Of a stretch of DNA of 64,000 nt, positions 6,830 to 30,610 are shown in pieces; position 1 is the stretch's first letter; the number at the start of each line of letters is the position of its first letter. The stretch lies in IMG/VR virus record IMGVR_UViG_3300021594_000641, positions 1 to 64,000 of that record. One strand, written 5' to 3'. The notes under the pieces were generated by a model. It was not told the DNA's origin. It ran no database searches and saw only the letters and a list, made by a program, of their open reading frames with translations. A program made the position numbers and the translations under genes. Origin of the DNA: a virus.

Positions 6830-8029
6830 TCACTCTCCTTTTTTGAATTTGACCAGGTGCCTGGCGTAAACTTCCGCCAGGCTAACACGACCAGACGCCA
6901 CTATCATTTTCTCTACGTACTCTGTTCCTCCTTTTGTGGCTTTGATGAATTTTTCAATTGTCCAACCAAATTGCCAGCGATAGAAAGCTGTACAATTATC
7001 AGCTTTCATGGCCTGGACCATCCAAAAGAAACATTCTTCTTTGTTTTCTTCTTTTATGTCGTGACCTTCCGCTATAAGATCAAACAAAGTTGACATAAAA
7101 GCATAAGGATGTTTTTCTAGTTCATCCCTGTACTCTTGCCAGTTTCCTTCTTTGCAATTTTCTTCATACCTTCCATAAAGCCACTCGTTAGTCAAAGAGT
7201 TGCTTCTAGGTATTTCTATCTCTCTCCCTTCTTCCCTAGCTTTTAGAATTTTATTCTTCCTAATAGCTTCTTCTTTTAAACCTTTTATAAGAACAGTCTC
7301 TATCCTTTCATTAGGCTTTCTTATAACTTTTACGTAATAAAAAAGAATTGCGGCTATTTTTTTGTCATAAACTTTGTCTTCATGATTTCTATAGCTTTCT
7401 AGATTTAAGCTAAGAACTATTGTTTCTAAAACACTTAGAAACTTGTTTTTAGCTTCGACGCTATTAATCGACTCAACGTAATCTTCCAAAAACTCTAGTA
7501 TAATTTCAGCGGCTTCTAGCTCGTTTATCTGTAGATTATTATTCCTAACCTCCAGTTGCTTACTTAAAAACAGCTCTGTTGTCCTTACAAGCTCTGCTTC
7601 TAACTCCTCCCATCTATCTTCATTTTCTGAGTTCTCGTCGGCATGTTTAAGAACCGAAGTGTATCGCGTGGCGTGCGCTACTGTACTCTTAAACGCTGTT
7701 TTATTATGAAACATTACTTCATAGTCAATTTCTCTAAGCTCTTTTATGATGAGGTCTTCTACAGGCTTAAACCTTTTATGCAAGATATAATTTGCATAGT
7801 CTGTAGCTATGTTTATAGACGTCAGAATTAATTCTTCGTAATGCGGATTTCCTACATAACTTCTGTTTTTATGGATTCGTCTATAGGCTTCGTACGCTGA
7901 CATGCCCTTGTCTGGTTTTTTAGCTTTAAATCTGCTTTCTCCTTCTTTGACAGCAACTTTTGGTTTGTACTTTTTAGCCTTATCTATGATCTGAGCCGCC
8001 TCGATCATCTTGTCAGCTACGTCTGTCAT
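6830..8029 (-). CDS. alpha-helical repeat hypothetical protein
   Basis: 399 aa; ATDYANYILHKRFKPVE, ATRYTSVL...RWEELE and LFYYVKVIRKPNERIE resemble the repeats of the neighbouring ORF. Confidence 0.75.
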   Translation of the reverse strand: MTDVADKMIEAAQIIDKAKKYKPKVAVKEGESRFKAKKPDKGMSAYEAYRRIHKNRSYVGNPHYEELILTSINIATDYANYILHKRFKPVEDLIIKELREIDYEVMFHNKTAFKSTVAHATRYTSVLKHADENSENEDRWEELEAELVRTTELFLSKQLEVRNNNLQINELEAAEIILEFLEDYVESINSVEAKNKFLSVLETIVLSLNLESYRNHEDKVYDKKIAAILFYYVKVIRKPNERIETVLIKGLKEEAIRKNKILKAREEGREIEIPRSNSLTNEWLYGRYEENCKEGNWQEYRDELEKHPYAFMSTLFDLIAEGHDIKEENKEECFFWMVQAMKADNCTAFYRWQFGWTIEKFIKATKGGTEYVEKMIVASGRVSLAEVYARHLVKFKKGE

Positions 8030-8322
8030 TTCTTGCTCCTGTCCTTGGTTAGTTCAAACTCAATCCTTGCCTTGATCTTGTCTACAACTTTTGAGATAGT
8101 CTCGGCATTTGGTGACTCATCTCCTTTAGGGCTTTCTCCTGGAATGACCCCAAGCTCTCTTAAGATCGACATGCAAAAATTCAAATCGTAATAGAGCTCA
8201 AAAAGATACTTGTCAGTCTTGCCTGACCCTATAGTTCTTCTTAGATACACCTCCTTCAATCTTTCTCTTATGTTTGCCAGCCGTTTGAACGGGTCTTTTA
8301 TGTGATTACGACCTATCGCCAT
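8026..8322 (-). CDS. hypothetical protein
   Basis: ORF with ATGA overlap to the next gene. Confidence 0.6.
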   Translation of the reverse strand: MAIGRNHIKDPFKRLANIRERLKEVYLRRTIGSGKTDKYLFELYYDLNFCMSILRELGVIPGESPKGDESPNAETISKVVDKIKARIEFELTKDRSKK

Positions 8323-8788
8323 CTTCGCTCCTCCACCAAAAAGGTTTTTCCCTGCCCTTCCAAGAAGCTATATTTTTCTTTCCTCCTATGTAATAAGCCC
8401 TGTATGCCTCTATTACACTTTCCCTTTTGTACTCGTCAGGCATAGCCTGAGGAGGTTCGGAGAAAGGGAACTCCGGAAGAAGAACCGACTGCTTTTTGCA
8501 ATCGTCTAGCACTTCTAAACACTTGTGTGTTTTTCCGTACCTGTATTGGTACTCAGAACACAAAGAAAACCCGAGAGCCACCAACCAATTAAAATTGGCC
8601 TGTGACTCTCGGGTCCATAAATTGCACGGATGGTTCTTATGAGCTTTTTTGTAGAGGGGCTTACCGCCGTGATACCACAGCGCCGTGCAAAGCAACTGCG
8701 CGGTTTCAAGCGGCATCTTGACTACATGTTTATCAAGATGCCACTTGGCGCATTCCTCTACGTCATAAGAAAGAACGAATATATTCAT
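8306..8788 (-). CDS. pyrimidine dimer DNA glycosylase / endonuclease V family protein
   Basis: MNIF...DKHVVKMPLETAQLL...HKNHPC.LW...N..WL......L..EY..RYGK.HK...PQAMPDEYK pattern. Confidence 0.8.
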   Translation of the reverse strand: MNIFVLSYDVEECAKWHLDKHVVKMPLETAQLLCTALWYHGGKPLYKKAHKNHPCNLWTRESQANFNWLVALGFSLCSEYQYRYGKTHKCLEVLDDCKKQSVLLPEFPFSEPPQAMPDEYKRESVIEAYRAYYIGGKKNIASWKGREKPFWWRSEDGDRS

Positions 8789-9255: not shown

Positions 9256-9504
9256 TTAAAACAACTCTGGAAAATTAGCCTTGAGCGTGTCGTCTGATAC
9301 ACTTTCAAGTCTGTCAGTTCCAACTAAGAAATCTTCCATCTTGTCTTCTGAAAGTTCTATTCCTGGCACCAACCTTTCTGTTTCAGAAATCTTTCTCCAA
9401 CATTTTTGTTTTGCCTCTAGCGCTTCTCTTAATAATCGAAGCTTCTCTTGGGACATACGATAAAAACCCTCCTGGGAAACTGTAGTAAAATTTGCTGCAG
9501 CCAA
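9256..9504 (-). CDS. hypothetical protein
   Basis: ORF; probable start at MSQEKL (9456). Confidence 0.5.
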   Translation of the reverse strand: MAAANFTTVSQEGFYRMSQEKLRLLREALEAKQKCWRKISETERLVPGIELSEDKMEDFLVGTDRLESVSDDTLKANFPELF

Positions 9505-9838
9505 GTGCGGTCATCATCTTGGTGCAAGCAGCACAGGGCTTGCTTATTCGCAAATCCCCTTGTTTGTTCATCCTCACGTTCACTATTTGAAAAGGAGGTT
9601 TAACTGGAGACTTTCTATAAGCCGCCAGTTCTGAGTGCCACTTAGGTCTAAACCCTTTGTCCCAGTTTCGGTGATACCCGTAATGCCTGGGAGGTTCTTT
9701 CTTTGAGTTGGTTGCCCAACTTACCAAAACACCGTCTTTTATTACGAAACTGTAATGCGGGAAATTTTTTAGCTCTGGATGCTTACTTAATTTTTTTAAA
9801 CAAGTAGACAGTATCTTATCCACAAGTTTCTTCTTCAT
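9383..9838 (-). CDS. zinc-dependent deaminase (cytidine/dCMP deaminase fold)
   Basis: HxE (WHSELAA) and PCxxC (SKPCAAC) motifs; start set at MKKKL after AGGA. Confidence 0.8.
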   Translation of the reverse strand: MKKKLVDKILSTCLKKLSKHPELKNFPHYSFVIKDGVLVSWATNSKKEPPRHYGYHRNWDKGFRPKWHSELAAYRKSPVKPPFQIVNVRMNKQGDLRISKPCAACTKMMTALGCSKFYYSFPGGFLSYVPREASIIKRSARGKTKMLEKDF

Positions 9839-9874
9839 AGCGTTCCTTTCTTTAAACACAAACTTAGCTAGGTT

Positions 9875-10037
9875 AAATCGCTTGTCTTTTTTGAAAAAAG
9901 TCAAGTGATTGGCTTTGCTAAGAAGTTTAGTAAAGAAAAGTTAACTAACTTGTTTTTAAATTTTTGTATAAAAAATTTACAAAAATTATAGCAAATGCCA
10001 AATCGCTTGACTTTTTTAAAAAAAGTCAAGCGATTTG
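9875..10037. repeat. two copies of a palindromic element
   Basis: 9999-10037 CAAATCGCTTGACTTTTTT-A-AAAAAAGTCAAGCGATTTG is a perfect 19-bp-arm palindrome; 9875-9911 is a near-identical copy. Confidence 0.9.
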
Positions 10038-10071: not shown

Positions 10072-11325
10072 TTATTGTATTAACACGGTTATACTAAAGT
10101 CGTTAGCAGCGTTAATTAGCCTGTTAAGCATGTTAGACCAGTTCCAATCGTACTGACCTATTGTCCTTTCGGCCTTGTTTATTACAATTGTTCCGCAGTC
10201 TTCCTTAACTGCCCAGTCTACCAATCTTCTTACCCAAGCCTTGTTGTAGTCTTCTATCACCCTTTCTCGGTTTAAAGTATTCCTGTCTCGTACAGCTTGG
10301 TGCCTAAGCCAGGCTCTCCTGTGTCCCCAAGGTCTTGTCTTACTACCGCAGGCTGACACCCTCTTGTCTAAAGCTTTAGACCTTTGTTGATGCTGAGCCA
10401 GCCAGGCCAGCACAGCCTCCTGGTCTATGAGTAAAGGCTTTATTTTTTTCTCTCCTTTCATTTCAGTCTTCGCTGAAATTAAATACTGTTTATTAGTTTC
10501 TAGCTTGTTGTTTATATCTATTCTTAAAGTGTTAGGCCTTTCTGTTGTATCCTTTTTGTTTCGCTCATAGGCTATTCTTAAACAAAGCTGGTCAGGCTTT
10601 GAATCCTTTCTCTTGTAATTTATGTCCACAGACAAAAACTTGTACTCTGGGTTCTCCTGGTTCCAACCTTCTTTTATTTTCCTCCATACCGCGTTCCTCA
10701 TGCCGTCAAGGTTGCCTATTTTGAAAGCAACCTCTCCAACGTCTTTACGCCAAGACAAAGTCAAAGTCCTTTTTACGAAAGCTTTTTTCTTCAAATGAGC
10801 CGCGAACATTGTTATTGGTACTCTCTCCATCCTAGGCTCTTTTCTAACGGCCTGAAGATGCAGAAAATTTCTTTTAGCGTTATAGACCGGATCGCCGGAT
10901 TTATAAGCTTTTGTCACCTTTTCCCTGACGTCATCAAACAGAAGCGATTTGGCGTTTCCAGCGTACAAGTCTTCAAGAACTACGCTCCTGAGCTCGTACA
11001 TAGTCATTCCGGACTTTCCTCCAAACAGGGATTTTAAAGTATCACTTGTAGCTTCCTTGTTTGGCACAAGGACTATGTTAGTGTCATCTCCGTTGGAGAC
11101 GTGCCGTATAGTAGCTCCCGACAGCAGAGCTTGACCGTATATGGCTGACACTTTCTTGCATACTTTTCTGTGGTCATCTATTGAAGTTATGACTCTTCTT
11201 TTAAGAGCGCGCTCAGCCTCAATTATTTCTTCCTTTGTGGCTTTATCGTCCACTTCAGGAACTACAAAAACATCGAGGCCGAGCGTCAAAATTACCTTGT
11301 TGCTGACAACTGTCTCAGTAGCCAT
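10072..11325 (-). CDS. Cas12f/TnpB-like protein, predicted nuclease-dead and C-terminally truncated
   Basis: WED-like RKIKEG..EYK..DINY..LRIAY; RuvC-I position RIDIN (canonical GxDLG); bridge-helix region SACGSKTRPWGHRR; RERVIEDYNKAWVRRLVDWAVKEDCGTIVINK (canonical ...A.k..cGtI.mEdL, E replaced by N); ends WNWSNMLNRLINAANDFSITVLIQ, before the TSqrC Zn ribbon and RuvC-III. Confidence 0.75.
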   Translation of the reverse strand: MATETVVSNKVILTLGLDVFVVPEVDDKATKEEIIEAERALKRRVITSIDDHRKVCKKVSAIYGQALLSGATIRHVSNGDDTNIVLVPNKEATSDTLKSLFGGKSGMTMYELRSVVLEDLYAGNAKSLLFDDVREKVTKAYKSGDPVYNAKRNFLHLQAVRKEPRMERVPITMFAAHLKKKAFVKRTLTLSWRKDVGEVAFKIGNLDGMRNAVWRKIKEGWNQENPEYKFLSVDINYKRKDSKPDQLCLRIAYERNKKDTTERPNTLRIDINNKLETNKQYLISAKTEMKGEKKIKPLLIDQEAVLAWLAQHQQRSKALDKRVSACGSKTRPWGHRRAWLRHQAVRDRNTLNRERVIEDYNKAWVRRLVDWAVKEDCGTIVINKAERTIGQYDWNWSNMLNRLINAANDFSITVLIQ

Positions 11326-12156: not shown

Positions 12157-12230
12157 TACTCTCGGCGGGAATCGAACCCACAACCTGCGGAGTAGAAATC
12201 CGCTGCTCTATCCAGTTGAGCTACGAGAGC
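12157..12230 (-). tRNA. tRNA-Arg (UCU)
   Basis: Cloverleaf GCTCTCG...; anticodon arm GCGGA-TT TCT AC-TCCGC; GGTTCGATTCC T-arm; no encoded CCA. Confidence 0.95.
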
Positions 12231-12233
12231 TTA

Positions 12234-12305
12234 AGCCACCGGAGGGACTCGAACCCTCAACCCCTGGTTTACAAAACCAGAGCTCTACCGTTGAGCTACA
12301 GTGGC
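12234..12305 (-). tRNA. tRNA-Thr (UGU)
   Basis: Anticodon arm CTGGT-TT TGT AA-ACCAG; canonical D and T arms. Confidence 0.95.
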
Positions 12306-12309
12306 TAAT

Positions 12310-12381
12310 TGGACTCGGAAGGGATCGAACCTTCGACCGGACGTATATAAGACGTCTGCTCTCCCGCTGAGCTACGAGTCC
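12310..12381 (-). tRNA. tRNA-Ile (UAU)
   Basis: Anticodon arm GACGT-CT TAT AT-ACGTC; acceptor GGACTCG/CGAGTCC, A73. Confidence 0.9.
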
Positions 12382-12441: not shown

Positions 12442-12816
12442 TTAGTAACGGCAGCAGGCGTAGAACATGCCGTTGCTGCCTTGGGCAATACCCACTTCAC
12501 GGGGTTGCCAGCGATTGCGGAAGCAGCAGTTCATCTCTGCTGCGTACGGCGTGGATCCGCATCCAACGCCTTCATAGCCAGAATTACCACCGAAGTGGCC
12601 AATCCTTAATAGGCTGGCCATGTGGTTGGCCACGCCTTGAGCTGTTGAAAACGTTCCAGCAGCTACTGTCCTTACTGGTCCTTGGTTAGTTCCTCCGCCT
12701 TGCCCTCCGTTCCCGCGACGGTTGAACAGTCCAAAAGGACCAGCCTGCACGGTTGAGGCAACAGTGGCGACCATGCCAGCGGCTAGGACAGTCTTCAAAA
12801 TCTTACTACGCATCAT
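12442..12816 (-). CDS. secreted protein with a minimal CAP/SCP-like domain
   Basis: Signal peptide ending VQA; AQGVA..MA.....H......EGVG...G.A.G.NG.FYAC pattern. Confidence 0.6.
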   Translation of the reverse strand: MMRSKILKTVLAAGMVATVASTVQAGPFGLFNRRGNGGQGGGTNQGPVRTVAAGTFSTAQGVANHMASLLRIGHFGGNSGYEGVGCGSTPYAAEMNCCFRNRWQPREVGIAQGSNGMFYACCRY

Positions 12817-13487: not shown

Positions 13488-13560
<73 letters not shown>

Positions 13561-13578: not shown

Positions 13579-13793
13579 TCTCTTATCCACGCACACGTGG
13601 GTGAGACGCCCTGGTGGACCTGGCCGACTATTCGTCCGTACCCCTTATCCACGCACGCGTGGGTGAGACGATGAGTTGGACAACTCCAACATTCCTCAAA
13701 TCCCCCTTATCCACGCACGCGTGGGTGAGACGATGACGCGGATGAAGCTTGGCTGGAAACGGTTCCCCTTATCCACGCACGCGTGGGTGAGAC
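13579..13793 (-). CRISPR. CRISPR mini-array 1: 4 repeats, 3 spacers of 33 bp
   Basis: Repeat (minus strand) GTCTCACCCACGCGTGCGTGGATAAGGGG at 13579, 13641, 13703 and 13765; 62-bp period; the degenerate repeat is at the low-coordinate end. Confidence 0.95.
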
Positions 13794-13856
13794 CCTAAAG
13801 TCTCACCAGTCCATCCGGACATTACAGTTCGTTACGAACTGTTTAGGCTTAAGGGT
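13794..13856 (-). promoter_or_regulatory. conserved structured leader / cis anti-repeat of array 1
   Basis: 63 nt; differs from the leaders of arrays 2 and 3 by one substitution and one 1-nt insertion. Confidence 0.9.
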
Positions 13857-28870: not shown

Positions 28871-28898
28871 AAAAAACGGGAGGAACCTTCCTCCCGTT
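28871..28898 (-). terminator. intrinsic terminator closing the array 2 transcript
   Basis: AACGGGAGGAA-GG-TTCCTCCCGTT then TTTTATTT on the minus strand, 35 nt beyond the last repeat. Confidence 0.8.
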
Positions 28899-28933: not shown

Positions 28934-29084
28934 CCCCTTATTCACGCGAGAGTGGGTGAGACGATCTAGGGGCGTCCACCACACAAATGCTCTCACCCTT
29001 ATCCACGCACGCGTGGGTGAGACGCCTTGAGTATTAGGTCCTCAAAGCGCTTTTTCCCCTTATCCACGCACGCGTGGGTGAGAC
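28934..29084 (-). CRISPR. CRISPR mini-array 2: 3 repeats, 2 spacers of 32 bp
   Basis: Same 29-bp repeat at 28934 (degenerate), 28995 and 29056; 61-bp period. Confidence 0.93.
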
Positions 29085-29146
29085 CCTAAGGTCTCACCGT
29101 CCATCCGGACATTACAGTTCGTTACGAACTGTTTAGGCTTAAGGGT
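29085..29146 (-). promoter_or_regulatory. conserved structured leader / cis anti-repeat of array 2
   Basis: 62 nt, identical to 30491-30552. Confidence 0.9.
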
Positions 29147-30217: not shown

Positions 30218-30490
30218 ACTCACGACCAGGGTCGCGAGGGTGAGACCCTGAGGCCCCACGCTGCCGGATTTCATCCACCCCTTATCAACTCACGCGTGGT
30301 TGAGACAGGTGAGCATGGATGGTGAAAGGCCGGACTATCCCCTTATTCACGCACGCGTGGGTGAGACTCCTCAAAAGCGCCATTTCGCGATTTTCCAGGT
30401 CCCCTTATCCACGCACGCGTGGGTGAGACGATGGTAGAACCTCACGCAACTCGCCCTAATACCCCTTATCCACGCACGCGTGGGTGAGAC
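30218..30490 (-). CRISPR. CRISPR mini-array 3: 4 full repeats plus 1 partial, 4 spacers (31, 32, 33 and 32 bp)
   Basis: Repeats at 30278, 30339, 30401 and 30462; partial repeat ending at 30246; decay increases away from the leader. Confidence 0.93.
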
Positions 30491-30552
30491 CCTAAGGTCT
30501 CACCGTCCATCCGGACATTACAGTTCGTTACGAACTGTTTAGGCTTAAGGGT
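30491..30552 (-). promoter_or_regulatory. conserved structured leader / cis anti-repeat of array 3
   Basis: 62 nt, identical to 29085-29146. Confidence 0.9.
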
Positions 30553-30575: not shown

Positions 30576-30610
30576 ACATCGTATTATGACAGAACTTTGT
30601 TATTTATTAA

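Follow-up and report, generated by a model that had tools for sequence, protein, structure and literature searches.

The DNA analyzed here (the window) is the first 64 kb of IMGVR_UViG_3300021594_000641, a 189,675-bp virus record of IMG/VR from a freshwater/lake source that is 91% complete. It carries a single-copy gene for a Cas12f-like protein of 417 amino acids, referred to below as the effector, and three short CRISPR arrays (mini-arrays), each preceded by a conserved leader. A preliminary description of the window had proposed that the effector is a nuclease-dead, truncated Cas12f-like protein, loaded from the three mini-arrays and used as a guide-directed repressor or roadblock against host genes or rival phages. 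The effector, the arrays and the leaders are located in the window as follows:

10072-11325, minus strand: dCas12f-like effector, 417 amino acids, with a WED-REC-RuvC core, Asn383 in place of the RuvC-II glutamate, and neither Zn finger/TNB nor RuvC-III
13579-13793, minus strand: mini-array 1, four repeats (the last with 3 mismatches) and three spacers of 33 nt
13794-13856, minus strand: leader and candidate scaffold of array 1, conserved 63 nt starting at ACCCTTAAG
28934-29084, minus strand: mini-array 2, three repeats (the last with 4 mismatches) and two spacers of 32 nt
29085-29146, minus strand: leader and candidate scaffold of array 2, conserved 62 nt, identical to the array 3 leader
30233-30490, minus strand: mini-array 3, four repeats plus a degenerate fifth half-repeat (30233-30246), three spacers and a possible fourth
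30491-30552, minus strand: leader and candidate scaffold of array 3, conserved 62 nt

The identity of the effector was established by sequence and by structure. Searches of Pfam, PHROGs and NCBIfam gave no meaningful match and PADLOC returned weak Cas12f/Cas12u3 matches only; single-sequence phmmer against the PDB sequences matched residues 331-415 with SpCas12f1 (E 0.008). The motifs named in the preliminary description were found in the protein, namely RPWGHRR for G-H-R, AVKEDCGTI for A-x-K-x-x-CGTI, and IVINK. phmmer pairs the effector segment AVKEDCGTIVINK with the RuvC-II strand CGTIQIENL of SpCas12f1 and, because CGTIVINK is aligned with this strand, the position of the catalytic RuvC-II glutamate is occupied by Asn383. 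RuvC-I had been called degenerate; this holds for its flanks, which are non-canonical (LRIDIN versus GVDMG), but not for the catalytic column, which is occupied by Asp270. A model predicted by AlphaFold2 with an alignment of the family reached a pLDDT of 94.5 and a pTM of 0.87, and a Foldseek search with this model returned AsCas12f first (E 1.6e-13). In alignments with VIA-align, which span 320-350 residues for Cas12f, the highest scores were obtained with the dCas12f structures 9n9c and 9n9m (Z 21.4 and 21.3), to which the model aligns from end to end (residues 6-417 with residues 1-365 of a chain of 365). They were followed by AsCas12f (Z 20.4), SpCas12f1 (Z 19.9) and OsCas12f (Z 19.5), with which the alignments end at residues 363 of 422, 367 of 500 and 368 of 433, respectively, whereas Z was about 15-16 with Cas12k, 14-15 with TnpB and about 10-12 with Cas12m. 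The strands and helices of the RNase-H core are present in the model; the Zn-finger/TNB segment and the RuvC-III helix are absent, in keeping with the early stop previously noted. Combined, the predicted structure and the alignments confirm the effector as a naturally nuclease-dead, C-terminally truncated Cas12f with the architecture of dCas12f. The fold comparison suggested as a check in the preliminary description was thereby passed.

To place the effector in a family, an exhaustive phmmer search against 1.84 billion cluster representatives was used and 111 relatives were found (68 at E <= 1e-10), most of them 360-440 amino acids long. A word-indexed homologue search with the single query and with the profile recovered the effector itself only, and tblastn against 50,697 phage records detected no relative in isolated phages. 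A profile was made from 78 full-length members, and a 12-sequence subset was used to locate loci in IMG/VR. Against the PDB sequences, the profile matched OsCas12f (8e-27), SpCas12f1 (9e-23), AsCas12f (about 1e-20), the sigma-E-type dCas12f of Flagellimonas (9n9c; 1e-17) and Un1Cas12f1 (7e-7); in bits, the active OsCas12f, SpCas12f1 and AsCas12f scored 97-76, compared to 67 for Fta dCas12f. The RuvC-I column holds an aspartate in one of the 78 members, which is Asp270 of the effector, and E, A, S, K or T in the others; glutamate is found at the RuvC-II column in 10/78. The tail beyond the last conserved helix is 10-30 amino acids long in most members, and weak TNB matches were seen in 4/78. 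As the catalytic columns are unconserved in the 78 members and the tails are short in most of them, the loss of the catalytic parts is old and family-wide rather than a local truncation. The sequences thus correct the preliminary description on this point: truncation is a trait of the whole family and no one-off.

The three mini-arrays of the preliminary description are real. The phage carries exactly three arrays with their three leaders, all on the strand of the effector gene and none elsewhere, which together contain 11 repeats of 29 nt and spacers of 32-33 nt, eight in total plus the possible ninth in array 3. The repeat consists of a 5-bp stem, a tetraloop and a AUAAGGGG tail, and terminal repeats are degenerate at the leader-distal end. 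The sequence of array 1 did not differ between four independent assemblies, as fits an array that is static. Three features may bear on the expression of the arrays:

13488-13560, minus strand: tRNA-Met, beginning 18 nt past the final repeat of array 1
28875-28898, minus strand: terminator-like hairpin followed by a T-run, of the intrinsic type, 36 nt past the final repeat of array 2
30583-30610, minus strand: weak match to a sigma-70-like promoter (TTAATA-16-CATAAT and a TG upstream), located about 30 nt before the leader of array 3

Because tRNA-Met lies 18 nt downstream, array 1 may be co-transcribed with it, its 3' end being set by tRNA processing. In scans for promoters and terminators, the numbers of sites were no higher than in shuffled sequences. 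Two further observations were made on the spacers. Spacers A2s1 (29024-29055) and A3s2 (30368-30400) have GCGCTTT(T)GAGGA in common, which may indicate neighbouring or related target sites, and ATC directly precedes the next repeat in four of the eight spacers.

Identity between the leaders of the three arrays runs from ACCCTTAAG to the first repeat, over 62-63 nt, and the sequences further upstream are unrelated. In the array 1 leader, one extra U is inserted between stems, and a C is replaced by a U so that a G-U pair is kept. The 3' end of the leader, GGTGAGAC(U), pairs with the 5' end of the repeat, and CCCUUA at its 5' end lies opposite UAAGGG at the 3' end of the repeat. The predicted fold of leader plus repeat comprises four stems, with GGUGAGACC/GGUCUCACC linking the 3' end of the leader to the 5' end of the repeat and the spacer exiting at the 3' end; its z-score is -4.4 to -4.7, compared to +0.5 for an internal repeat-spacer-repeat unit. 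In a duplex test, the phage leaders were nominally significant only (9-17 of 500 shuffles, 7 of 400 control windows). The same test was nominally significant for two relatives of the effector locus, L016 (8 of 500) and L022 (8 of 300), and borderline for a third, L028 (21 of 300). In the phage, the leader contains a split anti-repeat and likely provides a scaffold resembling a trans-activating CRISPR RNA (tracr-like scaffold).

The link between effector and arrays was supported by comparative genomics. An array of the same type, with 28-30-nt repeats and a 61-63-nt period, lies 3' of the gene and on the same strand in 10 diverged relatives, seven of them on viral contigs. These relatives are 20-37% identical to the effector, the gap between gene and array is mostly 120-350 nt, and the following loci are among them:

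L011: gene, cas1, cas2, a leader of about 120 nt, then at least 5 repeats to the contig end
L014: at least 12 degenerate repeats
L016: 2 repeats
L022, L023, L027, L028, L029 and L031: six of the ten IMG/VR loci, on contigs of 4 to 208 kb, with a period of 61 nt and a gap of 120-350 nt

This arrangement lends comparative support to the proposal that the effector would be loaded from the mini-arrays. No protein partner recurred across 15 loci, so that the unit is effector plus array.

The lack of a recurrent partner also bears on the idea that the guided effector recruits another enzyme, such as a nuclease, helicase or recombinase of the host or the phage, and thereby brings about cleavage, degradation or integration. 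Hybrid Cas12m-Cas3 and CasMu-V systems with a RuvC-III-less Cas12 have been catalogued (PMC10910872), and a tyrosine integrase lies within 4 kb in three of the 15 loci. No partner gene, however, recurs with the effector across these loci; in addition, no nuclease or helicase Pfam match was found among the open reading frames (ORFs) neighbouring the effector, and the large terminase of the phage is lambda-like (GpA_ATPase), with no hint of a Mu-type life style. Recruitment is thus quite unlikely.

Among the fetched loci, adaptation genes were found at one. In L011, the relative P0006 is encoded in an operon with Cas1e (374 bits, cut-off 216) and Cas2e (66 bits, cut-off 33), and by these profile scores the Cas1/Cas2 pair is unambiguously of type I-E. 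No Cas1 or Cas2 was detected in the other fetched loci of relatives, and none (Cas1 or Cas2e) in the whole 189,675-bp virus record, which extends to the full genome the earlier statement that no adaptation genes lie nearby. Models of Cas7e and Cas6e gave no match in the phage genome and were silent on an E. coli control as well.

Two other kinds of downstream arrangement were observed in relatives. The viral locus L031 has two downstream arrays (7079-7228 and 7948-8380), one with 28-nt repeats and a 61-nt period and one with 36-nt repeats and a 66-nt period. L018 (2950-3700), L024 (5690-5920) and L025 (1745-1975) have instead many copies of the 11-nt motif GCGGGTGAYGG, one every 30-35 nt, which look like arrays of which only the G-rich 3' part of the repeat is left.

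A target was found for one spacer:

13608-13640, minus strand: spacer A1s3, matching a gene of the staphylococcal nuclease (SNase) family on contigs L035 and L036

Contigs of JGI metagenomes were scanned with the 5' 20-mer of A1s3 and five contigs were returned. L035 and L036 match the spacer over its full length (33/33) with non-repeat flanks, and the match extends to 34/34 with the last G of the repeat. The 5' flank of the protospacer is GACAAG, that is 5'-AAG, and the blastn match is 34 nt long because the last G of this flank equals the last G of the repeat. An AAG flank with carry-over of the G is characteristic of spacers acquired by type I-E machinery at an AAG protospacer adjacent motif (PAM). 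The repeats and this acquisition signature are type I-E-like, a property that was not part of the preliminary description. The protospacer occupies nt 262-294 of an ORF of 477 nt, whose 158-amino-acid product is a staphylococcal nuclease homologue (PF00565, E 5e-27; PHROG 'endonuclease') that carries a signal peptide at its N-terminus. As A1s3 is in the sense of the coding strand, its CRISPR RNA (crRNA) would pair with the template strand. Roadblocks by dCas12a are most effective on the template strand. The other three contigs, L032-L034, were rejected as targets: they have only 21 nt in common with A1s3 (codons YGRIVGQ), without AAG, and were regarded as chance or motif matches.

The target contig, 19.8 kb long, also carries tetratricopeptide repeat (TPR), metallophosphatase and NucS-like genes and, on L036 at 178-2874, a gene for an extracytoplasmic function (ECF) sigma factor (PF07638) immediately before one for a 700-amino-acid Ser/Thr kinase with WD40 repeats. 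We take such an ECF sigma and kinase-WD40 pair to be typical of Planctomycetota. No similarity was found between the target contig and the phage by tblastx. The proposed use against host genes has thereby gained one concrete case, a spacer directed against a secreted SNase gene, with an AAG flank, on a cellular-looking contig. No target was found in the phage's own genome, where spacer matches reached at most 12 nt, as by chance, nor in INPHARED for all eight spacers and for the arrays of three relatives.

From these comparisons, we consider it probable, with a probability of roughly 65%, that the phage carries a type V-F-derived module without adaptation genes that acts as a natural CRISPR interference (CRISPRi) system. 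Guide loading, DNA binding, repression and ownership of the target contig by the host are the steps that we infer. Three static, same-strand mini-arrays would supply guides to the truncated, dead Cas12f. As in other type V systems, the spacer of each guide unit would most likely be preceded by the 3' part of the 29-nt repeat, and pairing between the conserved 62-nt leader and the first repeat may create the tracr-like scaffold. The ribonucleoprotein would bind matching DNA beside a 5' AAG-like motif without cutting it, and because it would bind but be unable to cut, its role would be that of a roadblock or repressor. At least one guide would be aimed at the template strand inside the ORF of a secreted SNase-type gene in a cellular genome, probably that of the host. 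As the phage has no Cas1e-Cas2e despite the acquisition mark, the spacers would have been acquired earlier or with host enzymes in trans.

Several observations weigh against this reading. Asp270 is kept at RuvC-I, even if alone it is unable to make a triad. The arrays lie 2.3, 17.6 and 18.9 kb from the effector gene. The AAG motif comes from a single protospacer, because only one spacer has a target, and the 5' 20-mers of six other spacers found none in IMG/VR. The target contig looks cellular and is probably of host origin, as judged from its gene content only. In the duplex test, leader-repeat complementarity was not significant in L011, L014, L023, L027, L029 and L031; because the signal is lacking in these six loci, the tracr-like scaffold is probably no family trait. 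Finally, because the repeats resemble type I-E repeats, a host Cascade could also use the arrays.

This last point defines the main rival, in which the arrays are viral mini-arrays feeding the type I-E Cascade and Cas3 of the host, and the dCas12f-like protein is independent of them, with another guide or none. The geometry of the arrays is that of type I-E in repeat length, 5-bp stem, tetraloop, AUAAGGGG tail and spacer length, with AAG and G carry-over at the protospacer; the arrays are 2.3-19 kb away from the effector gene, and viral mini-arrays that use host CRISPR systems have been documented (PMC11656645). However, 10 diverged relatives carry an array behind the effector gene with no Cascade genes in the fetched flanks, and the only cas genes of the L011 operon are those for the effector, cas1e and cas2e. 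The exact 20-nt repeat core was present in no array among 185,579 species genomes, where it had one chance site, and on no other viral contig. Moreover, Cascade-Cas3 would cut and degrade a cellular chromosome carrying the target. We therefore regard feeding of a host Cascade as unlikely.

The mimicry of type I-E repeats could also be explained by an anti-CRISPR decoy, the repeats and/or the protein sequestering host Cas6e, Cascade, Cas1-Cas2 or crRNAs, and phage RNA anti-CRISPRs made from repeats are known (PMC11656645). Yet a decoy needs neither real, unique spacers of 32-33 nt nor a perfect, PAM-flanked protospacer for one of them, and guide use is in line with both the leader scaffold and the effector-array cassette seen across the family. 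Nothing specific supports a decoy, which is very unlikely. Alternatively, the effector may activate transcription under RNA guidance, as the sigma-E-associated dCas12f does, and recruit a sigma factor or a phage RNA polymerase to its target. Its truncated architecture is the same as that of Fta dCas12f, with which it aligns end to end. On the other hand, no Sigma70_r2 or r4_2 domain was found anywhere in the phage genome, and no sigma or helix-turn-helix (HTH) neighbour recurs among the relatives: there is a single HTH gene in L014, a single distant sigma gene in L018 and no operon with a sigma gene. The one target identified is in mid-ORF and its guide has the sense of the coding strand, an arrangement that fits a roadblock but not a promoter. 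Activation is thus highly improbable.

A broader version of the CRISPRi reading can be put forward tentatively, as a possibility that we hold to be more doubtful than the module itself. Many phage lineages might carry a self-contained CRISPRi cassette consisting of a dead, truncated Cas12f and an array, with spacers captured by their own or borrowed Cas1e-Cas2e. Host genes would be silenced with the chromosome left unbroken, in this case that of a secreted nuclease that could damage phage DNA. Each array would open with a natural single-guide scaffold, and the whole would constitute a new type V subtype serving counter-defence or host takeover. Until now, nuclease-dead Cas12f has been known from the regulation of cellular genes in Bacteroidota, and a widespread phage-borne version with real arrays would mean that viruses use natural CRISPRi. 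The Cas1e-Cas2e operon of one relative and the AAG/G carry-over suggest a class 2 effector running on class 1 adaptation machinery. With the secreted-nuclease gene, the silencing of a host gene by a phage becomes directly testable. Given its 417 amino acids, its 29-nt repeat and a motif that may be as simple as AAG, the effector would be a very compact programmable DNA binder.

The effector region recurs in public data. Of the 3.9-kb region around the gene, 96-98% of sampled words were recovered in 18 DNA runs, from 11 studies of 2019-2025. In one lake study, contigs from RNA libraries agree perfectly with the effector gene at four sites and none lies on the arrays; they were rejected as evidence of expression, since carry-over of DNA is possible and contigs are unable to show absence. 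Among the ten ORFs neighbouring the effector, Pfam matched only an AAA ATPase, and no search aimed at transposases, which had been reported as missing nearby, was made.

The surroundings of the effector gene comprise the following features, all on the minus strand except the palindromes:

9383-9904, minus strand: 173-amino-acid protein downstream of the effector, with the pattern H-x-E ... P-C-x-x-C (HSELAAY ... KPCAACT)
9875-9910 and 10000-10035: two copies, 125 nt apart, of a 36-nt near-perfect palindrome (AAATCGCTTGAC-T/A run-GTCAAGCGATT)
12157-12381, minus strand: cluster of tRNA-Arg-TCT, tRNA-Thr-TGT and tRNA-Ile-TAT, between the effector and array 1
12442-12816, minus strand: 124-amino-acid protein carrying a signal peptide and a stretch rich in Gly and Gln, local GC 50% versus 43%

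The pattern of the 173-amino-acid protein, which has no Pfam match, recalls the zinc sites of cytidine/dCMP deaminases. The palindromes bracket a 47-amino-acid ORF just downstream of the effector, and in the assembly L020 the gene after the effector begins about 140 nt closer, indicating that the spacing differs between phage variants. The gene for the 124-amino-acid protein is covered by perfect RNA-library contigs from two lake metatranscriptome runs of one study.

Compared with known systems, the effector is homologous to the V-F1 nucleases AsCas12f, SpCas12f1, OsCas12f and Un1Cas12f1, with family profile E-values of 8e-27 to 1e-20 and a common fold. As with these, the array lies downstream of the gene in the relatives and there is possibly a tracr-like partner RNA. 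In contrast to them, the phage family has neither Zn finger/TNB nor RuvC-III, RuvC-I and RuvC-II are unconserved, and the D-E-D triad is not intact. V-F1 repeats are about 36-37 nt long, whereas those of the phage family are 28-30 nt with type I-E geometry.

The nuclease-dead, sigma-E-associated dCas12f of Bacteroidota (Hoffmann, Wiegand et al., Nature 2026, PMC13472631; PDB 9n9c/9n9m) has a Cas12f-like fold and is truncated at the C-terminus, so that part of the RuvC site is missing; the loss of RuvC-III in this lineage has been described (PMC10691335). The phage protein has both properties and, by analogy, would be expected to bind DNA under RNA guidance without cleaving it. Unlike dCas12f, it is phage-borne and has no rpoE or HTH operon, it is accompanied by true arrays, with type I-E-like repeats of 29 nt, where dCas12f has chimeric single guides, and one of its relatives has Cas1e-Cas2e. 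The same study mentions without detail an array-linked dCas12f cluster, for which gene repression was proposed (PMC13472631, Extended Data Fig. 1a,b); the phage family may or may not be this cluster. We found no published account of a dead, truncated Cas12f that is combined with type I-E-like arrays and Cas1e-Cas2e, nor of the distribution of such a protein among phages.

RNA-guided binding without target cleavage, for silencing or recruitment, is also known for Cas12m (V-M), Cas12k (of the V-K CRISPR-associated transposons, CAST) and TldR (PMC11656645, PMC10691335). Cas12m and Cas12k belong to other branches and sizes (Z 10-16 versus 20-21 for Cas12f/dCas12f), and Cas12k works with Tn7 proteins. 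TldR derives from TnpB and its guide is encoded at the 3' end of the gene, whereas the phage guides are in arrays and the effector is structurally nearer to Cas12f than to TnpB (Z 20-21 and 14-15, respectively).

Cas12r-CRISPR of the Thermus 'Lalka' phages is likewise a phage-encoded type V system, in which a 29-nt repeat serves the effector without tracrRNA; Cas12r is a protein of 564 amino acids in which D238A abolishes interference (bioRxiv 10.64898/2026.04.20.719267). Both systems have 29-nt type I-E-like repeats (degenerate in Cas12r) and no adaptation genes, and use of host type I-E Cas1-Cas2 has been proposed. Their spacers are similar in length (31-33 nt in Cas12r, 32-33 nt in the phage), and the 5' ARG PAM of Cas12r overlaps AAG. 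The two differ in that the phage protein is shorter, at 417 amino acids, and dead, whereas Cas12r has an active RuvC; the 50,697 phage records that gave no homologue by tblastn may not include the Lalka genomes. Finally, the phage arrays resemble those of type I-E Cascade systems in their 29-nt stem-loop repeat, their 32-33-nt spacers and, for one protospacer, AAG with G carry-over.

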